Numbered from the stretch's first letter, positions 1 through 12,059 are shown. The stretch is DNA of 12,059 nt from Desulfosoma sp. (GCA_037481835.1 JBBFKW010000027.1:1354-13412); one strand, 5' to 3'. A program made the numbers and translations. Notes: generated by a model from the sequence alone, not told the origin.

Positions 1-402
1 CTAGCGGCGGAGAACTTTTTCCCGGGCCCGTTTTTTCTCCAGGGCGCCCTCGATTTTCACCACCAAATCGTCGATGGGACACGGTTTAAGAAGATATTCA
101 TAGCCGCCGAGGCGCATGATTTCCACGGCGGCGTCCACATTGGCGTGCCCGGTGAGGATGATGACTTCCGGCAAGGGATCCAGGGCCTTGATCTTGGCCA
201 AGGCCTGGATGCCGTCCATGCCCGGCATTTTCACATCCAGGACGATGACGTCCACTTCGCCTTGCTGCACCCGAACCAGAGCCTCATGGGCCGACCCCGC
301 CTCCTCCACCTCGAATCCCCTCTTCCTTAAAAGTTTTCCCATGGTGGTGCGAAACCGATCTTCATCGTCCACGAGAAGAATCCGTGCGATGCTCGATGCC
401 AT
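1..402 (-). CDS. Stand-alone response regulator (single receiver domain, NtrC-like subtype, no output domain), 133 aa
   Basis: Receiver motifs ILLVDDE, phospho-acceptor VLDVKMPGMDG, ILTGH and YLLKP, followed only by a short basic tail. ATG at 402 is preferred over 408 because AGGAGG (409-414, minus strand) lies 6 nt upstream. Stop TAG at 1-3. Confidence 0.95.
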   Translation of the reverse strand: MASSIARILLVDDEDRFRTTMGKLLRKRGFEVEEAGSAHEALVRVQQGEVDVIVLDVKMPGMDGIQALAKIKALDPLPEVIILTGHANVDAAVEIMRLGGYEYLLKPCPIDDLVVKIEGALEKKRAREKVLRR

Positions 403-412
403 GAACATCCTC

Positions 413-1342
413 CTATTGAAAAGTCTTCCGAGACGCTATGGGACGCCGGGGGAGCCGGACCGTGAATTGACTGCCGCACCCTTCTTTCGAATCCACGAGG
501 ATCAGCCCTCCGAGGGCCGTCACGATTTTCTGGCACACGGCCAACCCCAGTCCCGTGCCCCTTTCCGGGTCCTTGGTGCTGAAAAAGGGATCGAAAAGAT
601 GTGGAAGGTGTTGCGGGGCGATGCCGCATCCCGTATCGGCGATGGAAATATCCACCCAGCCCTTGGCATCGTCCCGGGTCATGACAGTTACGGTCCCTTC
701 TTTTTCGATGGCTTGGACGGCGTTGTTCAGAAGATTGAGGACGACCTGGCGAAGCAACGGGGGATCCGTCCACACAGGCGCCAGATTTTCCTGGTAGAGC
801 CTCTCCAGGGTGATGCTCTTGCCGTGGGTGACCCGCTCCACCAGCCGGACCATTTCCTCGATCAATGCGTTGATGTCGACCCACTGCAGGACGGGTTCGC
901 TCTTTCGGGCGAAGTCCAACAGCCGGTGCGTGATCTCGGCACATCGGCTGACCTGGGCCGCGATGACCTCAAGGGATTCCTGGACTTCGCGCCGTGCCTG
1001 AACATCAGGCGGAGGGTGCTCTTTGAGGATTTCCTGAATCCATTCCGTTTCACGGCCGATCACGGCCAAAGGATTGTTCACTTCATGGGCGATCCCCGAA
1101 GCCATTTCCCCGATGGTGGCCATTTTTTGGGCTTGGAGCAGCTGGCGCGTGGTGAACTCGTCCTTGGAGCGCTCCTGGAGGATCGTTCGAACGATGACGA
1201 AGGAGACGATGAGGAAGAAAACACCCCACAGGACCAAAAAAAAACCGGAAACGGGCCGACCCGACACCGCCGCTGCCGCACCGTGCCCCAAAGCCCCGAG
1301 GGCCGGGATGTAAGCCCAGAAATGCCGCGCTTGTTCCTTCAT
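413..1342 (-). CDS. Membrane-anchored histidine kinase (short N-terminal hydrophobic region + HisKA + HATPase_c), ~309 aa
   Basis: H-box GIAHEVNNPL, N-box QVVLNLLNNAVQA, G1 DTGCGI, F-box FDPFFSTK, G2 GTGLGLAV. Start reassigned from 1597 to ATG 1342 (MKEQARHFW...), which follows AGGAAGG. The 85 upstream codons look non-coding and overlap the regulatory region. Confidence 0.92.
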   Translation of the reverse strand: MKEQARHFWAYIPALGALGHGAAAAVSGRPVSGFFLVLWGVFFLIVSFVIVRTILQERSKDEFTTRQLLQAQKMATIGEMASGIAHEVNNPLAVIGRETEWIQEILKEHPPPDVQARREVQESLEVIAAQVSRCAEITHRLLDFARKSEPVLQWVDINALIEEMVRLVERVTHGKSITLERLYQENLAPVWTDPPLLRQVVLNLLNNAVQAIEKEGTVTVMTRDDAKGWVDISIADTGCGIAPQHLPHLFDPFFSTKDPERGTGLGLAVCQKIVTALGGLILVDSKEGCGSQFTVRLPRRPIASRKTFQ

Positions 1343-1523
1343 GGGACCTTCCTGTTCCCGTGCCGATCCTTCCGCCTTGCAGCGGACCGCACCGAACACC
1401 ATGACCGAGCAAAAGACGGGCCGTTTGCCCCAGAGCATCCAGTCCCCCCGGCTCGAAGCCTCAGCCCTTGGCCGGACCGGGTCTTGGGAGCCTCGCGCAA
1501 CTACCGCCCCACGTCTTTCTGCC

Positions 1524-1550
1524 TTTGACGAAATGTTAAAGATCCTGACA
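1524..1550. promoter_or_regulatory. Candidate upstream activator site: overlapping imperfect inverted repeats TTTGAC-N5-GTTAAA (1524-1540) and TGTTA-N7-TGACA (1534-1550)
   Basis: An AT-rich dyad in GC-rich intergenic DNA, ~100-120 bp upstream of the sigma-54 motif, a typical distance for an enhancer-binding-protein site. Function is inferred. Confidence 0.45.
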
Positions 1551-1646
1551 GTCGTCCGAAGCTCCGCACCCCGGCACCCATCCCCCAGGCTTTCCATGCC
1601 TTAAGGGGGATGCGCCCTTTTCGGCCCCTCCGGGCAACACTTCGCC

Positions 1647-1661
1647 TGGCACATTCCTTGC
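1647..1661 (+). promoter_or_regulatory. Sigma-54 (RpoN) -24/-12 promoter for the rightward operon
   Basis: TGGCACATTCCTTGC matches the consensus TGGCACG-N4-TTGC at all but one defined position, with exact GG-N10-GC spacing. It is intergenic and 86 nt upstream of the ATG at 1748. Confidence 0.85.
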
Positions 1662-1747
1662 CCTTCAGACAAGCGGCGTTCGGGGAGAAGGGCTGTCTTT
1701 TCTCGGCGCGGCACACAACTTTCGAAGGTGGAAGGACGCCAGCTTTC

Positions 1748-2197
1748 ATGGACCGACCTTTCCGAATTCTCGTCACCGACCGAAATCGCCATGTGCGGGC
1801 TTTCCTCAAAAGGGAACTTGCCCGGGAAGGCTACGAGGTCATGGAAGCCAAGGATTGCCGGGAGTTGCAAAAAATCCTGCGTTCCCCGGTGACGGTGGAT
1901 CTTTTGGTGTTCGATCCGGACATCGCTTTCGAAAATTTTCGAAGCATGATCCATCTGCTGAAAGAACGCTATCCGTCGTTGCCTGTGGTTCTACACAGCT
2001 TTGGGGAGGAGCCTGCGGGAGGGCAGGATGTGGCGGCGGCCGTTCGAAAGACGGGCTCGCCCGGTGAGCTCAAAGCCGCCGTGGCCCGGCTTCTTGGGGG
2101 TTCAGCCTCTTGGGAGGCTTCTTCACGGCCTTCTGTCGGCCATCCGTGGCGCGGTCCCTTGAGCGCAGGAAGGAACTCCGATGATCACGGCGGATGA
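1748..2197 (+). CDS. Atypical stand-alone receiver-domain protein, ~149 aa
   Basis: Receiver-fold pattern FRILVTDRNRHVR...GYEVMEAKD...VDLLVFDPDI...PVVLHS...VRKTGS. The acceptor Asp, Ser and Lys positions are retained, but the acidic pocket (DD/DE to DRN) and KP (to KT) are degenerate. Start ATG 1748 lies downstream of the sigma-54 promoter, which rules out the 1610 start. Confidence 0.85.
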   Translation: MDRPFRILVTDRNRHVRAFLKRELAREGYEVMEAKDCRELQKILRSPVTVDLLVFDPDIAFENFRSMIHLLKERYPSLPVVLHSFGEEPAGGQDVAAAVRKTGSPGELKAAVARLLGGSASWEASSRPSVGHPWRGPLSAGRNSDDHGG

Positions 2198-3989
2198 AAG
2201 ATATTACAGCAGCCTGCGCCGAAACATCATGGCCATCATCATTACCGTGGCCCTGATGCCTCTGCTCGCCATGATGGCCATCGCCGGGTACCAGTTTCAC
2301 ACGGCCTATCGCTACAAGGTGGTGGATCACCTGGCGGCTTTGGTGGACCGCCACACTTTGCATATTGATTCTTTTCTTTCGGAAAAACTGGCGGACATCA
2401 GCACTCTGGCGGCCATCAAACCCTTGGAAAAGCTCCAGGACCCCGCCGAGATGGAAAAGATTCTCGGCATGTTCCAGGAAAAGCATCGCGGTGTCTTCGT
2501 GGACCTCGGGCTTGTGGACGAACGAGGCTTCCAGGTGGCCTACGCCGGCCCGTTTCGCCTGACGCAGGCGCAATACGGGGAGGCGTCCTGGTTTCAGGAA
2601 TCCATCCGGCAGCCTTTCACCGTGAGCGACGTCTTTCTCGGGCTTCGGGGCATACCCCACTTCATCGTGGCCGTGCGCATCGAATCCGGCGGGCACTTGT
2701 GGGTCTTGCGCTCCACCATCGATTTCATGGCGTTCAACCGCCTTGTGGAGGATCTGCGCATCGGCAAGACGGGCCAGGCTTTCATCGTCAACGCCGAAGG
2801 CCAATTCCAGACCCAACCCCATGCCCAGCCCGGCGTGGATCCCCAGGAACTGCTGAGGGTCGTGCGGGGGGAAACGCCCAAGGAGATTCATCCCACGGCC
2901 GTGGAGGGTCTGGAAATCATGGGTTCGTCGGGCAATGTCTACAAAATGCCCACCAGCTCCCACGGGGCTTCCTGGTTCGAGTACACGGTGCCCCAGAGCC
3001 AGCGCCGATATCTGGTCTTTTACCAGATCCTCAAAGGGGGGCGCTGGTACCTCTTCTACCTGCAAGAAGTGGAAGACGCCTTCCACGACCTTTATAAGGC
3101 CCGCACCCTGACCCTCCTCGTGCTGGCTTTCAGCGCCCTGGGCGTGGCGGTGACGGCGTGGGCGTTGTCCCGGCGGGTGGTCCAGCGGATCATCCAGGTG
3201 GACCGCGAAAAGGAGATGATGAACGAGCAGGTCATCGAGGCGGGCAAGCTGGCTTCCATCGGGGAATTGGCCGCCGGGATCGCCCACGAAATCAATAACC
3301 CCGTGGCCATCATGGTGGAAGAGGCCGGATGGATCCAGGATCTCCTGGAAGATCTGGATCGGGGCCAATCGTTGGACGTGGAGGAGGTGCGCCGATCCTT
3401 GCAACAAATCCGCACGCAAGGGGCGCGGTGCAAGGAAATCACGCACAAGCTCCTGAGTTTTGCCCGCAGAACCGACCCCACGGTGCAACAGGTGCAGCTG
3501 AACAAACTCATTCGCGAAGTGGTGGCCCTGGTGGAACAAAGGGCCCGATACGCCGGCGTGACCATCCGTACGCACCTGACGGACGGCCTGCCTTGGGTGG
3601 CCATGTCCCCGTCGGAGATGCAGCAGGTGCTTTTGAACCTCATCAATAACGCTCTGGACGCCATGGAAAAGACCGGGGGCACCTTGGACATCACCACCCG
3701 GTTCGAAGACGGCCGGGTCATCGTGGATGTGGCGGATACGGGAGAAGGGATTCCCCAGGCCATTCTCCAGCGCATTTTCGATCCCTTTTTCACCACGAAA
3801 CCCGTGGGCAAGGGGACCGGCTTGGGCCTTTCCATCTGTTACGGGATCATACGAAAGCTCGGAGGCGACATTTCAGTCAACAGCGCCGTCGGCGTGGGGA
3901 CCACTTTTCATATCTATTTGCCTCCGGGCGACGGGGTTGTGGAGACGCCGCCGCCGGGGCCGGAAACTCTCAGCAAGGAGGATTCGTGA
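2181..3989 (+). CDS. Sensor histidine kinase, TM + periplasmic Cache-like domain + TM + HisKA + HATPase_c, 602 aa
   Basis: TM1 IMAIIITVALMPLLAMMAIAGY. Periplasmic region with Cache-like motifs (VFVDLGLVDERG, WFQES...VSDVFLG, GQAFIVNAEG). TM2 LTLLVLAFSALGVAVTAWAL. H-box GIAHEINNPV, N-box QVLLNLINNALDA, DTGEGI, FDPFFTTK, GTGLGLSI. AGGAAGGA precedes the ATG. Confidence 0.95.
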   Translation: MITADERYYSSLRRNIMAIIITVALMPLLAMMAIAGYQFHTAYRYKVVDHLAALVDRHTLHIDSFLSEKLADISTLAAIKPLEKLQDPAEMEKILGMFQEKHRGVFVDLGLVDERGFQVAYAGPFRLTQAQYGEASWFQESIRQPFTVSDVFLGLRGIPHFIVAVRIESGGHLWVLRSTIDFMAFNRLVEDLRIGKTGQAFIVNAEGQFQTQPHAQPGVDPQELLRVVRGETPKEIHPTAVEGLEIMGSSGNVYKMPTSSHGASWFEYTVPQSQRRYLVFYQILKGGRWYLFYLQEVEDAFHDLYKARTLTLLVLAFSALGVAVTAWALSRRVVQRIIQVDREKEMMNEQVIEAGKLASIGELAAGIAHEINNPVAIMVEEAGWIQDLLEDLDRGQSLDVEEVRRSLQQIRTQGARCKEITHKLLSFARRTDPTVQQVQLNKLIREVVALVEQRARYAGVTIRTHLTDGLPWVAMSPSEMQQVLLNLINNALDAMEKTGGTLDITTRFEDGRVIVDVADTGEGIPQAILQRIFDPFFTTKPVGKGTGLGLSICYGIIRKLGGDISVNSAVGVGTTFHIYLPPGDGVVETPPPGPETLSKEDS

Positions 3990-4423
3990 TGGATCGCACT
4001 TATGTGATGCTCGTGGACGATGAAGTGCCCTTCGTGGACACCATGACCCGACGCTTGGGCAAAAGGGGTTTTGAAATCCTGCAGGCCTACAGCGGCCCGG
4101 AGGCGCTGCAGGCGTTGGCCAAAAATCCCAAGGTGGATGTGGTCGTTCTGGACGTGAAGATGCCCGGCATGGACGGTATCGAGGCCTTGCGGGAAATCAA
4201 GAAGGCCTACCCTCTCGTGGAAGTCATAATGCTCACCGGCCACGCCACGGTGGAAACGGCCATCGAAGGCATGCGCCTCGGGGCGTTCGACTACCTGATG
4301 AAGCCCTGCGACATCGACGAACTGGTGTCCAAGGTGCAGGAAGCCAAGGAGAAAAAAGCCCGGCACGAAGACAAGATCATGGAAGCCAAGGCCAAGACCA
4401 TCGCCTTGCGCCGGGGAGATTGA
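3989..4423 (+). CDS. Stand-alone response regulator (single receiver), ~144 aa
   Basis: VMLVDDE, VLDVKMPGMDG, MLTGH, YLMKP. ATG 3989 overlaps the kinase stop (TGATG), with AGGAGG 7 nt upstream. GTG 3986 is an alternative start. Confidence 0.95.
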   Translation: MDRTYVMLVDDEVPFVDTMTRRLGKRGFEILQAYSGPEALQALAKNPKVDVVVLDVKMPGMDGIEALREIKKAYPLVEVIMLTGHATVETAIEGMRLGAFDYLMKPCDIDELVSKVQEAKEKKARHEDKIMEAKAKTIALRRGD

Positions 4424-4438
4424 GGAAAAGAGAGCGCC

Positions 4439-4834
4439 ATGACCGTCCCGCATAAGCCCGAGACACGCGAGCTTCGCGTCCTTTTGGTGGACGACGAAAA
4501 GGGCTTCACCGATGTCTTGGCCCGCCGCCTGGGGCGACGGTCCATGCGCGTCACCACAGCCGGCAGCGGCACCGAAGGCATTCAAAGACTTCGGGATGAG
4601 CGGTTCGATGTGGCGGTCTTGGACCTCAAAATGGAAGACATGGACGGTATCGAAGTTCTCAAAATCTTTAAGAAGATCGACCCCCAAATGCCGGTCATCA
4701 TGCTCACCGGCCATGGTTCGGAACAGGCGGCTCGAGAGGGCTTGGCTTACGGCGCCTTCGATTACCTGACAAAACCCTGCGAGTTGGACGATCTGGTGTC
4801 CAAGATCTGTCGGGCCGTGGAAGCTGCGAGGTGA
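4439..4834 (+). CDS. Stand-alone response regulator (single receiver), 131 aa
   Basis: VLLVDDE, VLDLKMEDMDG, MLTGH, YLTKP; no output domain. Confidence 0.95.
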   Translation: MTVPHKPETRELRVLLVDDEKGFTDVLARRLGRRSMRVTTAGSGTEGIQRLRDERFDVAVLDLKMEDMDGIEVLKIFKKIDPQMPVIMLTGHGSEQAAREGLAYGAFDYLTKPCELDDLVSKICRAVEAAR

Positions 4835-4838
4835 GTCC

Positions 4839-5258
4839 GTGGAAACGATCCGAGTGTTGCTCGTCGATGATGAAGTGGAATTTCTCGACACGCTCCTCAA
4901 GCGCATGCGCAAGAGGCAGGTGGAGGCCGCCGGGGTCTACAGCGGGGAAGAAGCCCTGCGCTACCTGGAATCATCCCCGGTGGACGTGGTGGTCTTGGAT
5001 GTCAAAATGCCGGGGATGGACGGCATTGACGCCTTGAAGGCCATCAAGGAGCGGTATCCCTTGGTGGAAGTGATCATGCTTACGGGCCACGCCAACGTGG
5101 AGGTGGCCATTCAGGGCATGGAACTGGGCGCCTTCGACTACCTGATGAAACCCATGGACATCGATGAGCTCCTCTACAAGGTCCAGGACGCCTGCAAGAA
5201 AAAGAGACTTCATGAAAAGAGAATCCAAAAGCGGAAAGGGGGTGAAGACGGAGAGTAA
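4839..5258 (+). CDS. Stand-alone response regulator (single receiver), 139 aa
   Basis: VLLVDDE, VLDVKMPGMDG, MLTGH, YLMKP, basic C-terminal tail. GTG start with a 4-nt gap after the previous stop, preceded by GAGGTG. Confidence 0.95.
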   Translation: METIRVLLVDDEVEFLDTLLKRMRKRQVEAAGVYSGEEALRYLESSPVDVVVLDVKMPGMDGIDALKAIKERYPLVEVIMLTGHANVEVAIQGMELGAFDYLMKPMDIDELLYKVQDACKKKRLHEKRIQKRKGGEDGE

Positions 5259-5338
5259 CAAAAGGGGAGTGTGAGCCGGTACCGGCCGGGATCGGCAAGG
5301 GAGGAATGCCTACGAGACCTAGAGCAGAGGTTGAGACC

Positions 5339-6637
5339 ATGAAAAGCCTTCGAAAAGCCTATGAACTCCTTCTCAGCGCATCCAAAGCGCACGCCCGCTG
5401 GGATTACGAGACATCCATGAACATCGTGCGCAGTCGAAAGCGTCTGGTCCTTCTCGGCCTTTTGGCGCTTCCGGCGTTGCTGTTCGCCGTGGCCTTCGCC
5501 GCAGATCCGTCCGGCGGAGGGCTGCCGGGCATGCTGGGCGGCAAGGAAGCCTACACGCCCGCCTTTTACGACACCCGCATCTTCTTGATTTCCATTCTCA
5601 TCGGCTTGTGTGCCGGCCTGATCACGGGATGTATCGGCGCCGGTGGGGGCTTCATCATCACCCCCGCCTTGATGAGCGCCGGCATCAAGGGGATCTTGGC
5701 GGTCGGAACGGATTTGTTCCACATTTTCGCCAAGGCCATCATGGGAACCACGGTTCATAAGAAACTGGGCAACGTTTCCGTGCCCTTGGCCATCTGGTTC
5801 CTCGTGGGATCCGGCATCGGGGTGACCGGGGGCGGGGTGATCAACCGCACCCTTTACGAAATCAACCCTCTTCTGAGCGACACCTTCATCAGCGTTGTCT
5901 ACGTTTTCCTCCTGGGATTCTTGGGAATCTATGCTCTGACGGATTTCCTCAGGCTGCGCAAAGCGGGCGTGGATGTGGGCGCCCACCACGGGGAAAGCCC
6001 TCACGGCGCCGAGGCGGCTTCGGGCAAGGTGGGGCTGCCGGCCCGGTTGCAGGCCGTGAACCTCCCCCCGTACATCCGCTTTGATGAAGACCTGGTTCCC
6101 GGCGGCAAGAAGATCCCCGCCATCTTCGTCATCATCTCCGGCGCCCTGGTGGGTTTCGTGGCGGCTATCATGGGCGTGGGCGGCGGTTTCCTCACGTTCC
6201 CCATCTTTGTCTACGTTCTCGGCGTCTCTTCGTTCACCACGGTGGGAACGGACATCCTTCAGATCATCTTCACGGGCGCCTACGCCGCCATCTTTCAGTA
6301 CGCCATCTATGGGTTCATTTTTTATACGCTCGCCATGGGCATGCTCCTGGGCTCGCTTCTCGGCGTCCAACTCGGGGCTCTCACGACGAAGGTCATCAAG
6401 GGGATTTACATTCGGGGATTCTACGCCACGGCCATCATGGCGGGTTTTGTCAACCGCTTGTTCGCCCTGCCCAAGAAGCTGGCGGACATGAAGTACATCA
6501 GCCTGGCTCCCGAAACGGGCAAAATCCTAACCACCATCGGCAACTGGGCCTTTTTCATCGTAGTGACCATTTTCGCCTTATGGGTCATCGGCACTTTTGT
6601 GACCCGCATCGGGCTCCTTCGCGGAGAGGAGGCGTAA
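5339..6637 (+). CDS. TauE/SafE (sulfite exporter, TSUP) family polytopic membrane protein, ~432 aa
   Basis: Two internal repeats with the family signature: GLITGCIGAGGGFIITPAL...AVGTDLFHI and GFVAAIMGVGGGFLTFPIF...TVGTDILQI. Many hydrophobic helices. The start is uncertain: ATG 5339 (GAGG upstream) or ATG 5306. Confidence 0.88.
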   Translation: MKSLRKAYELLLSASKAHARWDYETSMNIVRSRKRLVLLGLLALPALLFAVAFAADPSGGGLPGMLGGKEAYTPAFYDTRIFLISILIGLCAGLITGCIGAGGGFIITPALMSAGIKGILAVGTDLFHIFAKAIMGTTVHKKLGNVSVPLAIWFLVGSGIGVTGGGVINRTLYEINPLLSDTFISVVYVFLLGFLGIYALTDFLRLRKAGVDVGAHHGESPHGAEAASGKVGLPARLQAVNLPPYIRFDEDLVPGGKKIPAIFVIISGALVGFVAAIMGVGGGFLTFPIFVYVLGVSSFTTVGTDILQIIFTGAYAAIFQYAIYGFIFYTLAMGMLLGSLLGVQLGALTTKVIKGIYIRGFYATAIMAGFVNRLFALPKKLADMKYISLAPETGKILTTIGNWAFFIVVTIFALWVIGTFVTRIGLLRGEEA

Positions 6638-6641
6638 GATC

Positions 6642-7346
6642 ATGATTCGCAATAAAAAAGCCTTCAGTTTGGGACTTGTCTTGACCGTCTCCTTTTTCAT
6701 CGTCTTGTGGATCATGTTCATGCCGTATTTCGGCGGCGAGAACGCCTTCCATGCGGCGGACCGGTTGTTCAACACCATTTCCAAGGGGTCTTCTTACTAC
6801 ATCCCGGGCCTGGTGGAAAAAGCCAAGGAATGGGACGGCAAGGCGCTTGACGTGAAGATTTCCGTCAGCCCCGATAAGCTCCGGGACAACGTGGCCAAGA
6901 TCCTCATGACCAACGGCGTCATGGTTGCTCAGGAGGCCAACGCCTTGAAGGTGCAAGGGGATCTGGGATCCCTTTTCCAGGCGGCCTTAAAAGACAGTGA
7001 CGATATGTACCACAACCGCGGGGACGCCGTGAGCAGTCGTTACGGCATGCCGGAGAAGGAAGCCCTTTTTGCCTGGTTCAACGCACTCAAAGCTGTGGAC
7101 AAGGCCCTCAAGGAACAAAAGAAGTTTAAGGAATCCAAGGCCGTCAATGAGGTGATCGCTCGTGCCGTCGAGGTCGGTTACAATTACTATGGCATCGCCC
7201 CTCAAAAGGCTTCGGAACAGGCCGGTATTCTGGCCTTCGCACTGGTCTTCTACGTTGTCTACACCATGTGGTGGGGTTTTGCGATCATGTACCTGTTCGA
7301 TGGGCTTGGTCTGGAAATGAAGAAAGGGGCCAAGAAGGAAGTGTAG
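6642..7346 (+). CDS. Hypothetical membrane protein (N- and C-terminal TM helices flanking a ~170-aa soluble domain), probable TauE partner, 234 aa
   Basis: TM FSLGLVLTVSFFIVLWIMFMPYF and TM GILAFALVFYVVYTMWWGFAIMYLF, with basic termini (RNKK; KKGAKK). 4-nt gap after the TauE stop, GGAGG upstream, codon usage like its neighbours. Confidence 0.85.
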   Translation: MIRNKKAFSLGLVLTVSFFIVLWIMFMPYFGGENAFHAADRLFNTISKGSSYYIPGLVEKAKEWDGKALDVKISVSPDKLRDNVAKILMTNGVMVAQEANALKVQGDLGSLFQAALKDSDDMYHNRGDAVSSRYGMPEKEALFAWFNALKAVDKALKEQKKFKESKAVNEVIARAVEVGYNYYGIAPQKASEQAGILAFALVFYVVYTMWWGFAIMYLFDGLGLEMKKGAKKEV

Positions 7347-7432
7347 AGTTTTTAGGTGCGGAGGAGGCCTGCCGTGGGAAAGGCCATACCCCCCCGAACC
7401 GGCGCAGCCCTGCGGCGGGGCTCCTCCCTCGG

Positions 7433-7464
7433 CCTTCCCGGCGGGTTTTCCGCCGGGAAGGTTT
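7433..7464 (+). terminator. Strong hairpin; possible partial terminator or mRNA-stabilising/processing stem
   Basis: Perfect 12-bp stem CCTTCCCGGCGG (7433-7444) / CCGCCGGGAAGG (7450-7461) with loop GTTTT, followed by only TTT. It lies between the partner gene and the PEP-synthase-like gene. Confidence 0.6.
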
Positions 7465-7599
7465 GCCAAGCTTTGGAACCAACCGAAATGGGCCGTTTAA
7501 CCGTTGTGCCCGTGGAAGGCGCCGGGGGGCGCCCGGTTCTTCCAACCGGCGGGCGTCATGAAGGGGACGCTGTGAGCGGGACACCTAGGGGAGGATCCG

Positions 7600-10257
7600 G
7601 TGGCAAGCGCGTTGAGAAGGGGCCTGGAAAAGTGGGCGAAGAACGTGTCGGGCTGGCTCGGACTCTCCCTATCCAAGGAACCGGCTTCTGAGGAGAGCCT
7701 GGAGGATCTGCGTCTTGCTTTTCAGAACCGGTATCATCACTTCAAACTCCTTCTAAACGCCAACAATCGCGCCTTGGAGATCATGACCGAAATGGAAGAG
7801 ATGCTCCAAGGCACGCGCCCTTTCGGCATGAGCTTCGTGAGATCCCGCTGCACGCAGGTTTCCACCAGTGTTTTCCAGATCATCCAGCATTTGGATGCCT
7901 TAGCCCCCGGAAAATATACCGAGCTCTACGAGCGGTTCAGGTCCATCCAAAGGGAGATCAACCCGTATATCCACGCCGCGCGGCCGTCGGCTGCCGGGCC
8001 TTTGGTGGTGCCCATGGATCAGGTGGACAAGGAGTCGGGCGATCTTGTGGGATCCAAGATGGCGAACCTGGGCGAACTGAAGCGCCGCCTGGGCGTGACC
8101 ACTCCCGAAGGGTTCGCGGTCACCGTGCACGGCACCACCCGTTTTTTTGAAGAAAACGACCTTCAGGAAGAAATCGATCGGCGGGTGCAGGCGGTGCCTT
8201 CGGATCGATTGGACGATCTTTTCGCCCTGAGCGCCCAGATTCAGCAGCTGGTCATTGCCGCTTCGGTGCCTCACGACCTCCGGCAGGCCGTGGAAGCCCA
8301 AGTCAAGGCCCTCAAAGACAGGATGGGGGGGCGGCTGCGTTTTGCCGTGAGAAGCAGTTCTTTGGCGGAAGATCTTCCGGGCATGTCCTTTGCCGGCCAG
8401 TTCCGCTCCGAGCTCAACGTGGGCGAAGAAAACATCCTGCAGGCCTTCAAGGAAGTGGTGGCCAGCAAGTACGGTGTGGCCGCCATGACGTACCGGCTCC
8501 GCCACGGCCTTCGGGACGAGGACGTAGCCATGTGCGTGGGATGCCTCGTCATGGTGGACGCCGTGGCGAGCGGGGTGCTCTACACGCGAAATCCGCTGAA
8601 TATCCGAGACGACGTCCTGGTGATCAACGGCGTGTGGGGGCTTCCCAAGTCGGTCGTGGACGGCAGTGTGAGCCCCGACGTGTGGGTCGTGTCCCGCAGG
8701 GAACCGCACGCGGTGCTGGAGCGCCGCATTGGGGAAAAATCGGTCAAGTATGTCTGCTATCCGGATGAAGGGGTATGTCGGCTGGAGACGGCCGGGGATG
8801 AAAGCCGCCGCCCGTGCCTGACGGATGCCCAGGTGGCGGAGCTGGCCGGGCTGGCCCTTCGCATCGAGGCCCATTACGGTGGGGCTCAGGATATCGAATG
8901 GGCCGTGGACGGCTCGGGCCGTTTCGTCATCCTCCAGACGCGGCCTTTTGAAGGGCGCGCCTCGGAAAATCGGCCCGTTCACGTCCCCGGCGAAGACCGC
9001 GGCATTCCCGAGGGCGTCCAGGTCCTCGCCGAAGGGGGCGTTACCGCCTCGTCCGGTGCGGCGTCCGGGCCCGTTTTCGTGGTGCGCCGCGACGCCGATG
9101 CCTTGCAGTTTCCCGAAGGGGCCGTCTTGGTGGTGGCCCAGGCGCTGCCCCGCTGGGCGCCGCTTCTCGGGCGTGCCGCCGCAGTCGTCAGCGAACAGGG
9201 AAGCGTGGCCGGCCATTTGGCCAACGTGGCCCGGGAGTTCCGGGTTCCCGCCCTTTTTGGCATTCCTGGCATCCTGGAACGCCTGGAACCGGGTCGCATG
9301 ATCACCGTGGATGCCGACCAGGGACGCATCTACGACGGTTTGGTGGAATTGCACACGGAGCGGCCTGGAGAACGCCCGGCCCTCATGAAAGGCACCCCTG
9401 TTTACGAGGCCCTGGAAGGGGTGAGTCGCCTGATTCTTCCCCTGCATCTTCTGGATCCCGAATCGCCGGATTTTTCACCCAAAAAATGCCGTACTTTCCA
9501 CGACATCACGCGGTTCTGTCACGAAAAGGCCGTGGATGAGATGTTCCGGTTCGGTTCGGAACATCGCTTTCCCCAAAAGTCGGCCAAGCAGCTCAAATGC
9601 CGCGTGCCCATGCAGTTTTGGATCATCAATCTGGATGACGGTTTCGTGGATGACATCGACGGCCCTTACGTCACCTTGGACCAAATCGTCTCTGTGCCCA
9701 TGCTCGCCCTATGGCAGGGGATGACGGCCATCCCGTGGGAGGGGCCGCCTCCCATCGACAGCAAGGGGTTCATGTCCATTCTCATGGAAGCCACGTTCAA
9801 CCCGGGTCTGGATCCTTCCGTGGCGTCCCCGTACGCCATCCGGAATTACTTCATGATTTCTCGGAATTTCTGCAGTCTCCAGTCCCGGTTCGGTTTTCAT
9901 TTTTCCACCGTGGAAACCCTGGTGGACGAAAGGACGTCCCAGAACTACGCGAGCTTTCAGTTCAAAGGCGGAGCGGCCGACCGCACGAGGCGGATCCTTC
10001 GCGCCCGTTTCGTGGCGGACCTCCTGGAGGCGTTCGATTTCCGCTGTGAAGTGCGGGAGGATGCGGCCTTCGCCCGCCTAGAAGGCCGCCCTCAAGACAT
10101 CATGGTGGATCGGCTGCGCATTTTGGGTTATCTCATCATTCACACGCGCCAGCTGGACATGGTCATGACCAATGCAGGTTCAGTGCACCACTACAGGACC
10201 AAGATGCTCCAGGAGATCGAAACGGTGCGGCGCGCTGAGGGTCTGGTCTGTCCATAG
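7600..10257 (+). CDS. PEP synthase/PPDK-related protein: helical N-extension + ATP-grasp (PPDK_N) + phospho-His swivel domain + unassigned C-terminal domain, 885 aa
   Basis: PPDK_N motifs VGSKMANLGEL, PEGFAVT, FAVRSSSLAED...SFAGQF, SGVLYTRNP, GLPKSVVDGSVSPD, QDIEWA...ILQTRP. Swivel domain ASSGAASGPV...VVSEQGSVAGHLANVAREFRVPALFG...ITVDADQGRIYDG (His at residue 539). GTG start preceded by GGGGAGGA. Not called ppsA because the C-terminal pyruvate-binding barrel motifs were not seen. Confidence 0.9.
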   Translation: MASALRRGLEKWAKNVSGWLGLSLSKEPASEESLEDLRLAFQNRYHHFKLLLNANNRALEIMTEMEEMLQGTRPFGMSFVRSRCTQVSTSVFQIIQHLDALAPGKYTELYERFRSIQREINPYIHAARPSAAGPLVVPMDQVDKESGDLVGSKMANLGELKRRLGVTTPEGFAVTVHGTTRFFEENDLQEEIDRRVQAVPSDRLDDLFALSAQIQQLVIAASVPHDLRQAVEAQVKALKDRMGGRLRFAVRSSSLAEDLPGMSFAGQFRSELNVGEENILQAFKEVVASKYGVAAMTYRLRHGLRDEDVAMCVGCLVMVDAVASGVLYTRNPLNIRDDVLVINGVWGLPKSVVDGSVSPDVWVVSRREPHAVLERRIGEKSVKYVCYPDEGVCRLETAGDESRRPCLTDAQVAELAGLALRIEAHYGGAQDIEWAVDGSGRFVILQTRPFEGRASENRPVHVPGEDRGIPEGVQVLAEGGVTASSGAASGPVFVVRRDADALQFPEGAVLVVAQALPRWAPLLGRAAAVVSEQGSVAGHLANVAREFRVPALFGIPGILERLEPGRMITVDADQGRIYDGLVELHTERPGERPALMKGTPVYEALEGVSRLILPLHLLDPESPDFSPKKCRTFHDITRFCHEKAVDEMFRFGSEHRFPQKSAKQLKCRVPMQFWIINLDDGFVDDIDGPYVTLDQIVSVPMLALWQGMTAIPWEGPPPIDSKGFMSILMEATFNPGLDPSVASPYAIRNYFMISRNFCSLQSRFGFHFSTVETLVDERTSQNYASFQFKGGAADRTRRILRARFVADLLEAFDFRCEVREDAAFARLEGRPQDIMVDRLRILGYLIIHTRQLDMVMTNAGSVHHYRTKMLQEIETVRRAEGLVCP

Positions 10258-10317
10258 GAGGGCGCTTGGCCCCGGTGGCCGCACCGAAAGACGGGATGTC
10301 GCCGCAGGAGATTTTTC

Positions 10318-11610
10318 ATGGGTCCCATGACGTTCCAAAGTGATTTGACAACGATCGCCTTCAGCCGGAGCAAGCTCATGGGCCGCAACCGGGCCCTGTC
10401 GGTGCTCTTGGGGCTGAGCGAACTGTTGTCCCAGTCCAAGGGGGTCAGCGAGCTCCTCAACCAGGCCCTGGATTATGTGCTGGAACACACGGCCTTTGAT
10501 GCCGGACGCATCTACCTCATGGAGCCCGACCGGCAGGGTTTGCGGTTGGCCGCCCATCGGGGGCTGGACGTGGAAGGTTTGGAACGGGTGAGTTTGGACG
10601 AAGGCTTTACGGGACGGGCGGCCAAAACGTGTTCTTTCATCGCCCAATCGGTGCAGGCTTTGGGGGACGCCAAAAGAGCCGAACTCTTGGCGTCCAAAGG
10701 GATTCACACGGTGGTCTGTGTCCCGTTCGTCGTTTTGGACCGCGTGGAAGGGGTCATGAACCTGGCGGCCAAGAGCCCGATCCAGTTGGACCACGATGAG
10801 GTGGATCTTCTCATGATGATCGGCCACCTCATCGGTGTGGCGGCCATTCATTCGGAAACGGAAGAAATTCTTCGGGAGATCGTCGAAGAGCTGCAACACA
10901 GGAACGAGACTATCAAGCTTTTCGTTTCCACGGTAGGCCACGACTTGAAGGGGCCGGCCGTAGCCGCCTACGGGTTTGCCAAGCGATTGCAGGAACGCTA
11001 CGCCGGCGTGCTGGATGAGCGAGGCAAGCTCTATTGTGAGCAGATTCTTAAGGCGACAAGGCAAATTGCGTGCATGGTGGACGAACTGAACAGCTTCGTC
11101 CGCACCCGCGAAATGACCCTTCAGATTCGTCGCCTTCCCGTATCGGCCTTGTGGGAGAGCCTGCGGCAGGAGTTTTCGCCGGAGTTTGCCAAGAGATCCG
11201 TGCGTTGGGAGGAGCATTCCCCGGTGGCGGAAGTGACGGCCGACGAAGTCATGGTGCTGCGGGCCTTGAGGAACCTCGTGCAGAACGCCTTGACCCACGG
11301 CGGTCCGACCCTGAGCGCCATTCGCGTGGGCTGTGACGAAAGGGAAGGATTTTTCGTCTTTTGGGTTGCCGATGACGGCCGAGGTATTCCCGCGGAAGAG
11401 CACGAAAAATTATTCCAACCCTTTGCCCGACTGAAGACGTCTCAGTCCGTGGAAGGCTCGGGCTTGGGATTGACCATCGTGCGCGAAGTGGCGCATCGCC
11501 ACGGGGGGGAAGCCTGGGTGCGTTCCGAGCCGGGCAAGGGGGCGGTTTTCTTTTTCAGCGTGGCGAAAGCAAAGGCGGCCGAATGCCGGTGCGGCCATGA
11601 AGGAGGGTGA
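10318..11610 (+). CDS. Cytoplasmic GAF-domain sensor histidine kinase, 430 aa
   Basis: GAF pattern (AGRIYLME...LRLAAHRGL...EGFTGRAAKT...VVCVPFVVLDRVEGVMNLA). H-box VGHDLKGP, N-box ALRNLVQNALTH, DDGRGI, LFQPFARL, GSGLGLTIV. No TM segment. AGGAG lies 7 nt before the ATG. Confidence 0.93.
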   Translation: MGPMTFQSDLTTIAFSRSKLMGRNRALSVLLGLSELLSQSKGVSELLNQALDYVLEHTAFDAGRIYLMEPDRQGLRLAAHRGLDVEGLERVSLDEGFTGRAAKTCSFIAQSVQALGDAKRAELLASKGIHTVVCVPFVVLDRVEGVMNLAAKSPIQLDHDEVDLLMMIGHLIGVAAIHSETEEILREIVEELQHRNETIKLFVSTVGHDLKGPAVAAYGFAKRLQERYAGVLDERGKLYCEQILKATRQIACMVDELNSFVRTREMTLQIRRLPVSALWESLRQEFSPEFAKRSVRWEEHSPVAEVTADEVMVLRALRNLVQNALTHGGPTLSAIRVGCDEREGFFVFWVADDGRGIPAEEHEKLFQPFARLKTSQSVEGSGLGLTIVREVAHRHGGEAWVRSEPGKGAVFFFSVAKAKAAECRCGHEGG

Positions 11611-11612
11611 CC

Positions 11613-12059
11613 ATGTTCAAGAAGATTCTGTTCCCGGTGGATTTTTCCGATGTGTCGGCCAGGATTGTGCCCGTGGTGCGGGAAATGGCCGCCCGTTTCG
11701 ACGCCTCCGTTCATGTGCTCTTCGTGGCGCGGGTTTTCGAGCACCTGGGAAGCATCTACGTGCCGCACCCCAGCATCAAGACCATTCAAGCGGAATTGGC
11801 CGAAGGGGCTCAAAGAAAACTCGCCGAATTCCTCGCGCAACATTTCCATGGGGTTTCCGTGGAGGGCCGCGTGGTTTCCGGCGATCCCGCCGAGGAGATA
11901 CTGAAGTATGCGAGTTCCCAGGGGATCGATCTCATCATCATGGGCACCCACGGGCGCAAGGGGCTGGAACGGATCGTCTTCGGAAGTGTGGCGGAACGGG
12001 TGGTCAAAGGAGCCGCCATGCCGGTGCTCACCGTGAACCCTTACGGCGACAAGACAAAG
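11613..12059 (+). CDS. Universal stress protein (UspA family), stop codon beyond the window edge
   Basis: Manually translated (absent from the ORF track): MFKKILFPVDFSDVSARIVPVVREMAARFDASVHVLFVA...VVSGDPAEEILKYASSQGIDLIIMGTHGRKGLERIVFGSVAERVVKGAAMPVLTVNPYGDKTK. AGGAGG upstream; 149 open codons to the window end. Confidence 0.95.
   Translation, partial: MFKKILFPVDFSDVSARIVPVVREMAARFDASVHVLFVARVFEHLGSIYVPHPSIKTIQAELAEGAQRKLAEFLAQHFHGVSVEGRVVSGDPAEEILKYASSQGIDLIIMGTHGRKGLERIVFGSVAERVVKGAAMPVLTVNPYGDKTK

Follow-up and report, generated by a model that had tools for sequence, protein, structure and literature searches.

A conserved, uncharacterised gene cluster of sulfate reducers and their relatives brings together a TSUP/TauE permease, a PpsA-derived candidate phosphotransferase and stand-alone receivers

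What do stand-alone receivers act on when they are encoded beside a transporter and a phosphotransferase-like enzyme? The question is raised by a stretch of Desulfosoma sp. DNA (GCA_037481835.1 JBBFKW010000027.1:1354-13412), referred to here as the window (12,059 nucleotides (nt) in all; positions are 1-based within it). Open reading frames (ORFs), called at their maximal length, were matched to Pfam and NCBIfam. Many reading frames are open in the window because its G+C content is ~60%, and the two databases single out one consistent gene set among them: three histidine kinases, five receiver-only proteins (one atypical), a TSUP/TauE-family permease, a 234-amino acid (aa) partner with two helices (P234), an 885-aa protein resembling the phosphoenolpyruvate (PEP) synthase PpsA (hereafter PEPS-like), and a universal stress protein (USP). 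A preliminary description of the window had named three kinases, TauE with a two-helix partner, an ATP-grasp/phospho-His protein and a USP, all of which are present; its five receiver-only proteins were also found, except that the fifth, RECx, is atypical and scores below the PF00072 cut-off.

We compared the window with its relatives by anchoring on an alignment of the 234-aa family. A total of 185,579 species genomes were scanned, and 80 of 117 relatives were analysed with up to 10 kb on each side; six-frame ORFs in these loci were labelled by phmmer, using the window proteins and domains as queries. P234 ORF calls were obtained for 79 of the 80 loci; in L067 an overlapping ORF displaced the call. 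A TauE homologue lay directly upstream of P234 on the same strand in all 76 evaluable loci, and a PEPS-like gene (N, core and C parts) followed P234 within 1.5 kb in 72 of 77. We also observed a single receiver directly before TauE on the same strand (58 of 74 evaluable loci) and a dCache kinase within 6 kb (40 of 65). The receivers sorted into orthogroups, and the genes kept a fixed order: x, dCache kinase, b, c, d, TauE, P234, PEPS. The full window-like order was present in 11 of the 80 loci. The minimal d-TauE-P234-PEPS form occurred in nine, with two more cut by contig ends and three preceded by a hybrid kinase. Judging by record titles, the carriers are Desulfosoma, Desulfacinum, Desulfomonile, Syntrophaceae, Desulfarculaceae, Desulfobacteraceae, many Desulfovibrionaceae and a few otherwise-labelled bins.

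These observations define a conserved, uncharacterised gene cluster across the Thermodesulfobacteriota, that is, sulfate reducers and their relatives. Its invariant core consists of an extended TSUP/TauE permease, its two-helix partner, a PpsA-derived His-swivel phosphotransferase and one canonical receiver, RECd; the fuller form, as in the window, adds the dCache kinase, the canonical receivers b and c, and the atypical x. The preliminary description had presented the window as a single module and had staked that view on co-conservation. Across the 80 loci, strong co-conservation does link the receivers and the dCache kinase to the TauE pair and the PEPS-like gene, so the view survives for the core; what it loses are the lineage-specific genes described below. 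Its statement that such neighbourhoods occur in sulfate reducers was borne out by loci from sulfate reducers and relatives.

All core genes lie on the plus strand of the window: RECd (4839..5258, 139 aa; PF00072, 105.8 bits), the permease (5306..6637, a 443-aa maximal ORF; PF01925, 118.5 bits against a cut-off of 32.6, residues 97-379), P234 (6642..7346; no family, described from hydropathy and an AlphaFold2 model) and the PEPS-like gene (7600..10257; PPDK_N and PEP-utilizers in Pfam). Upstream on the same strand are RECx (1748..2197, 149 aa), which is the first gene of the operon, the dCache_1 sensor kinase (2181..3989, 602 aa; Pfam and hydropathy), RECb (3986..4423, 145 aa, of NtrC/AtoC type; PF00072, 106.9 bits) and RECc (4439..4834, 131 aa; PF00072, 105 bits). 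By coordinates, the genes of the window overlap by 17, 4 and 4 nt or are separated by 15, 4, 47, 4 and 60 nt. The tight spacing noted in the preliminary description is seen throughout, save for a single wide gap of 253 nt in front of the 885-aa gene.

Exploratory partial Mantel tests on 47 loci gave the strongest correlation for TauE and P234 (r 0.69), followed by RECd and the PEPS-like protein (r 0.43) and by P234 and the PEPS-like protein (r 0.35; each p 0.001), with r -0.04 for RECd and TauE; such distance-matrix correlations are weak evidence because the loci share a phylogeny and the ORF calls are maximal. The putative co-evolution signal between RECd and the enzyme is weak in this sense.

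The 885-aa protein comprises a family-specific N-terminal domain (~26-135), an ATP-grasp domain (148-456; PF01326, PPDK_N, 312.5 bits), a phospho-His swivel domain (504-575; PF00391, PEP-utilizers, 60.2 bits) and a family-specific C-terminal domain (591-885). Could it be an ordinary PEP synthase (pyruvate, water dikinase) that lies here by chance? Many database records carry that name, both Pfam domains belong to such an enzyme, and the closest PDB sequences are PEP synthases. We nevertheless regard this explanation as very improbable. No Pfam match to the PEP-utilizers_C barrel was found in the protein; the PpsA model NF005057 scored 341.2 bits against an equivalog cut-off of 598 and covered residues 135-589 only, PDB PpsA chains aligned to residues 135-592 only, and TIGR01418 reached 320.9 bits against 739.75. 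The gene order kept in 72 of 77 loci speaks against a chance placement. Matches to the rifampin phosphotransferase/PigC-RedH models were also far under their cut-offs (NF041857, 236 vs 999; NF052631, 201 vs 1300). Because the PEP/pyruvate barrel is lost and a 295-aa domain without relatives in Pfam or the PDB takes its place, we consider that the 885-aa protein is not a PEP synthase; it appears instead to be a PpsA-derived phosphotransferase with a different acceptor domain.

The catalytic residue, His539, was invariant in a 36-member alignment, as were fifteen residues of the C-terminal domain (H634, D635, R638, H641, E642, H767, G790, G791, R801, R826, H848, T849, R850, Q851 and D853). An AlphaFold2 model of this domain built from 40 sequences (pLDDT 81.7) predicted a mixed alpha/beta fold, different from that of PEP synthase. 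Foldseek against the PDB returned at best E 0.04 with a TM of 0.20, the domain profile found no PDB sequence, and no Pfam family was common to the 40 members. A profile search of 1.84 billion representatives recovered 1483 proteins, in which the domain nearly always ends chains of ~850-900 aa, the shorter ones being fragment-like; the five longest or oddest matches, inspected as potential fusions, carried no extra Pfam domain. The PEPS-like family as a whole gave at least 5322 matches (8000 candidates scored), and the best 120 were 848-928 aa long with 94-100% query coverage, so the extra N- and C-terminal parts are features of the family. A protein atlas search returned the same families only. 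An HPt-like role for the N-terminal domain was considered and rejected, as no His in this domain is invariant in the 36-member alignment.

Further PEPS-like genes were met in the loci. Just past the left end of the window equivalent in the closest relative (L001:564-3185) lies a second PEPS-like paralogue of 873 aa with the same domain layout, its C-terminal domain 38% identical, convergent with the RECa/HKa pair. Among the eight extra copies in the loci, four are immediately preceded by a same-strand receiver gene and three have a convergent receiver-containing neighbour. Directly downstream of the PEPS-like gene, three loci encode fusions of Cytidylate_kin2 with a C-terminal receiver (L046:6009-7241, L064:3621-4832 and L073:13473-14774), and L002 and L003 encode a 384-aa protein with the same C-terminal receiver and an N-terminal part that has no Pfam match.

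All five window receivers are single-domain proteins without DNA-binding or enzymatic output by Pfam and NCBIfam. The canonical four (RECa, b, c and d) carry the acidic pair DD, the acceptor D, the T and the K. These phosphorylation residues were conserved in 27 of 27 RECb orthologues (T or S at the Thr site), 48 of 48 RECc orthologues and 66 of 66 RECd orthologues (T or S). RECx, at 23.8 bits against the PF00072 gathering score of 30.2, reads as an atypical receiver: Arg replaces the second acidic residue in RECx itself and in 27 of 29 orthologues, and 23 of the 29 retain the acceptor Asp. RECd is the receiver retained in the minimal cluster versions, and its alpha4-beta5-alpha5 region was almost invariant across 34 orthologues. 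In L051 and L057 RECd stands directly before the PEPS-like gene, and in L014, L016 and L017 a d-like receiver stands directly before a second PEPS-like copy. A Pfam scan of 20 window frames found no HTH, AAA+, GGDEF or HPt domain, and Pfam gave no partner genes of the chemotaxis, cell-cycle or protease kind there. As no output domain is present, the receivers would act by protein contact, and gene order together with the partial correlation makes RECd the best candidate for a link to the enzyme.

What would such an enzyme serve? In the window, the permease gene probably starts at 5339 (432 aa), since its closest homologue has 432 aa. A crude hydropathy scan gave seven strong hydrophobic segments. 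The TauE search returned at least 6328 matches (8000 candidates scored), and the best 120 were 71-96% identical and mostly 417-440 aa long. Across orders, the permease is far more conserved (71-96% among these 120) than its partner (~50%) or the enzyme (~58%), and it adds N-terminal, central-loop and C-terminal parts to the usual TSUP core of ~250 aa. P234 matched no Pfam or NCBIfam family and has 1351 relatives of almost constant length, every one unnamed or 'hypothetical'. Its AlphaFold2 model (pLDDT 83.4) places an alpha/beta domain of ~165 aa between two transmembrane helices and ends in a conserved basic tail, which is disordered in the model; no PDB relative was found by fold (best E 0.13) or by profile. 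From the positive-inside rule, the ~165-aa domain would be periplasmic. TauE and P234 were adjacent in 76 of 76 loci, are 4 nt apart here and gave the strongest partial correlation, and for these reasons we take them as one transporter, presumably for a small anion. Upstream of the long TauE, L014, L016, L017 and L028 carry an extra USP and a shorter TauE (351 aa), for example at L014:982-4522, and the ~1.5 kb between these two genes matched no query.

In a rival explanation of the cluster, TauE-P234 would export or import a sulfur oxyanion (sulfite, thiosulfate or sulfate) for dissimilatory sulfur metabolism, and the PEPS-like enzyme would have a separate metabolic role and only be co-expressed. 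The TSUP family is tied to sulfur-containing anions, and the identity of 71-96% within this TauE subfamily (best 120) suits a carrier of this kind. A conserved TSUP clade, of the same family as our permease, has been put forward as a sulfate carrier candidate in the excerpts of PMC5840216. Co-induction under thiosulfate disproportionation is also described in the excerpts of PMC13490349, where the families are matched by names only. In the Dissulfuribacter thermophilus proteomics of that paper, three consecutively numbered proteins rose together; from their names they would belong to the same three families as TauE, P234 and the PEPS-like protein. The protein named first in that paper is placed by its authors in carbon metabolism, as an enzyme. 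Co-expression alone, however, would hardly keep the enzyme gene adjacent in 72 of 77 loci across several orders, and the P234-PEPS distance correlation also argues against a separate enzyme. We judge this explanation unlikely.

The rightward genes are headed by a sigma-54 type -24/-12 element, TGGCACATTCCTTGC, found by motif scan on the plus strand at 1647..1661. Just as the preliminary description had it, this is a single motif: it is the sole mismatch-free match to TGGCAC-N5-TTGC in the window, in which shuffles expect 0.01 perfect matches, and it lies between divergent genes ~87 nt before the RECx start. At the operon heads of the related loci, 61 kb in total, motifs with up to one mismatch were found 41 times, where the remaining sequence of the loci predicts 2.25 (~18-fold). 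Of 70 evaluable loci, 40 had such a motif, placed ahead of either RECx or TauE. No inverted repeat that might serve as an activator site was found upstream of the promoter. From these motifs, the window very probably carries one sigma-54-dependent operon, spanning about 1647-10257 plus local additions. Consistent with a sigma-54 promoter, NtrC-type activators were encoded near 23 of the 80 relatives: 25 of 39 receiver-containing ORFs of at least 230 aa were REC+Sigma54_activat proteins, most also with HTH_8, and in 14 loci a kinase and an NtrC-type activator lay directly upstream on the same strand. The label 'output-less' given earlier therefore holds for HTH, AAA+ and GGDEF within the window, and not for the neighbourhood of these relatives.

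Is transcription, then, the output of the receivers too? They may be NtrC-type proteins that have lost their AAA+ part and serve a sigma-54 activator as phosphate sinks or heterodimer partners, with TauE, P234 and the enzyme as regulated cargo. Receivers a, b, c and d all find their best NCBIfam matches in the receivers of AtoC, NtrC, ZraR and GlrR (AtoC and NtrC for RECb), and the activators and sigma-54 promoters just described are what this explanation would expect. On the other hand, the minimal clusters retain RECd with no activator within 10 kb, RECd relocates beside the PEPS-like gene, and its distances follow those of the enzyme after the other proteins are accounted for. The closest relative, L001, also has no sigma-54 activator within 10 kb on either side. 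We therefore hold a purely transcriptional output to be doubtful, although it is a serious contender.

We propose instead that the receivers act on the proteins encoded beside them. TauE and P234 would form one transporter for a small anion. The PEPS-like enzyme would load His539 from ATP and pass the phosphoryl group to a non-pyruvate acceptor at its C-terminal domain, for which the simplest candidate is the transported solute or something made from it. The dCache kinase would sense an external ligand and phosphorylate receivers b, c and d, which would act by protein binding, RECd most likely on the PEPS-like enzyme. Transcription would need an NtrC-type activator, encoded next door in many relatives and presumably outside the window in this genome. 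For this proposal as a whole, namely an ATP-driven enzyme and a transporter under kinase-receiver control and NtrC-type activation, we estimate a probability of roughly 40%, and it is put forward tentatively. The joint rise of the three D. thermophilus proteins would count for it too, as far as their names identify the families. Post-translational control by the receivers, already put forward in the preliminary description, stays putative, and so does the phosphoryl exchange with receivers that it offered as an option for the enzyme. In a complex prediction, the 885-aa protein (26-885) and RECd (1-125) scored 0.20 and 0.26 against a mark of 0.32, without controls, which speaks neither for nor against binding.

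A bolder possibility is that the receivers have their true partner in the PEPS-like protein, either because phospho-RECd gates phosphorylation of the solute or because His539 passes its phosphate to a receiver Asp. We regard this as quite unlikely. If true, the gated version would be an ATP-driven, receiver-gated counterpart of group translocation, and the His539-to-Asp version would be a receiver kinase unrelated to histidine kinases. Under this reading, the very strong conservation of the permease among sulfate reducers would also allow the solute to be a sulfur oxyanion at the centre of their energy metabolism.

Several findings weigh against the proposal. The downstream PEPS-like gene was missing in 5 of the 77 evaluable loci (L018, L019, L021, L056 and L065), and no receiver stood directly before TauE in 16 of 74. 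Eight further PEPS-like copies in the loci lie away from P234, so the enzyme is not tied to the TauE-P234 transporter alone. The families also differ in size, with at least 5322 PEPS-like and at least 6328 TauE matches against 1351 for P234. The proposed contacts, substrate and reaction are all conjectural, and the distance correlations have the limited weight given above. The closeness of the receivers to those of NtrC and AtoC means that they could act on activators or as phosphate sinks, and the lack of a nearby activator in L001, which counts against a transcriptional output, equally counts against the NtrC-type activation that we propose.

The remaining genes of the window would be lineage-specific additions outside the core. 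On the minus strand lie RECa (1..408, 135 aa, a stand-alone canonical receiver; PF00072, 106 bits) and HKa (413..1597; Pfam, hydropathy), a HisKA+HATPase kinase of uncertain start with two hydrophobic helices and no recognised sensor-domain match. The HKa/RECa pair was found in 1 of 80 loci; an a-class orthologue of RECa likewise occurred in L001 alone (1 of 80), so that RECa appears to be a lineage-specific accessory. The 394-aa maximal ORF of HKa is probably over-long, since the orthologous ORF in L001 has 341 aa; with a start further in, the divergent promoter region would be wider. Downstream of the PEPS-like gene on the plus strand are a cytoplasmic GAF-HisKA-HATPase kinase (10318..11610, 430 aa; Pfam) without any hydrophobic segment by hydropathy, present in the same position in 3 of 80 loci (L001, L004 and L040), and the USP (11607..12059; PF00582, 113.2 bits), which is truncated by the window end; a USP gene occurred anywhere in the locus in 11 of 80. 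Downstream of the USP in L001 (L001:15629-20700) we noted a Pat-like protein with CoA-ligase domains and GNAT (907 aa), a tandem USP (326 aa) and a DHH-DHHA1-CBS protein.

The dCache kinase has its periplasmic dCache_1 domain between two transmembrane helices, followed by HisKA and HATPase (Pfam, hydropathy). With three HisKA+HATPase kinases and receivers bearing an acceptor Asp, the window holds the pieces of classical two-component systems. The term phosphorelay, used in the preliminary description, does not apply in the strict His-Asp-His-Asp sense because the window has no HPt domain or hybrid kinase: Pfam gave no Hpt match and no kinase-receiver fusion there. Hybrid kinases are present in some related loci.

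The 253-nt gap before the 885-aa gene (7347-7599) is conserved in the closest relative only, and its fold energy is ordinary (z -1.64). It contains a perfect GC-rich hairpin at 7435-7463 (12-bp stem, 5-nt loop) with a weak T-rich stretch after it, through which the transporter and the enzyme could come to be expressed at different levels. A 111-aa ORF (7356-7691) that overlaps the start of the 885-aa gene matches no family, is rich in Gly, Arg and Pro, and is probably not a gene. Scans of the window with Rfam gave two sub-threshold chance matches only, and a promoter/terminator scan gave nothing over shuffled expectation. PADLOC detected no defence system, with weak generic receiver matches to 2 of 12 proteins.

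Sulfate reducers and syntrophs carry many sigma-54-controlled TSUP transporters, and the carrier of sulfate or related anions is still open according to the excerpts of PMC4641369 and PMC5840216. Within this setting, the cluster is notable for what it links: a TSUP permease of unusual conservation and its own partner protein, a dikinase-type enzyme whose acceptor domain is new, and receivers that form a defined set. It also bears on annotation: thousands of records are named 'pyruvate, water dikinase' without having the pyruvate-binding domain. Full-text literature searches gave no mechanistic description of the cluster, in agreement with what the earlier description had stated.

The nearest published analogues are the sigma-54-dependent TSUP operons of Desulfovibrio vulgaris Hildenborough (DVU2957-DVU2967, DVU0132-0133 and DVU0150-0146), which we compared by annotation only and through excerpts of the sources. 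Kazakov et al. (2015) describe nine sigma-54-dependent operons for TSUP or PSE transporters of unknown substrate (PMC4641369, excerpts). Among them, DVU2957-2967 encodes a TSUP protein and a hypothetical membrane protein; its other products are a sigma-54 regulator, two receiver-only proteins and two kinases, one a sensor kinase and the other a hybrid kinase. The operon is driven by the activator DVU2956, as seen by gel shift (same excerpts). A highly conserved TSUP clade that has DVU2958 among its members and is present in 25 of 44 sulfate-reducer genomes is considered a possible carrier of sulfate by Marietou et al. (2018; PMC5840216, excerpts). In what is excerpted from both papers, the substrates of sulfate-reducer TSUP proteins are stated to be unknown, and the function of the D. 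vulgaris operons is listed as 'transmembrane transport' only. Like the window, these operons have a sigma-54 promoter and a TSUP permease beside a 'hypothetical membrane protein', and DVU2957-2967 also has a membrane sensor kinase and two receiver-only proteins, with a hybrid kinase there too. Unlike the window, the excerpted gene lists include no PEP-synthase-like gene, and DVU2957-2967 has sigma-54 regulator genes of its own.

The other likenesses are to parts of the cluster. With the PpsA and PEP-utilising dikinases (PPDK, rifampin phosphotransferase, PigC/RedH), the 885-aa protein shares the ATP-grasp and the swivelling phospho-His domain with its catalytic His, and with PpsA also the domain order, ATP-grasp then swivel. 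It differs from PpsA in having a 295-aa domain instead of the PEP/pyruvate TIM barrel, plus an N-terminal domain of ~110 aa; the swivel is central, whereas that of rifampin phosphotransferase and PigC is C-terminal. Stand-alone receivers of the CheY, DivK and CpdR type likewise lack an output domain and act by contact or as phosphate shuttles or sinks, but in the present cluster three orthologous receivers and an atypical one stand in fixed order beside a transporter and a dikinase-type enzyme. The bacterial phosphotransferase system (enzyme I, HPr, enzyme II) also sets a swivel-His protein beside a transporter and small phospho-acceptors. The likeness is one of logic only, as the cluster has an ATP-grasp domain in place of the PEP-binding barrel, no HPr, EIIA or EIIB, and small proteins that are Asp-type receivers. 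Overall, the part families and analogous TSUP operons are already known, and what is new is their fixed association with a remodelled dikinase and an orthologous set of stand-alone receivers.

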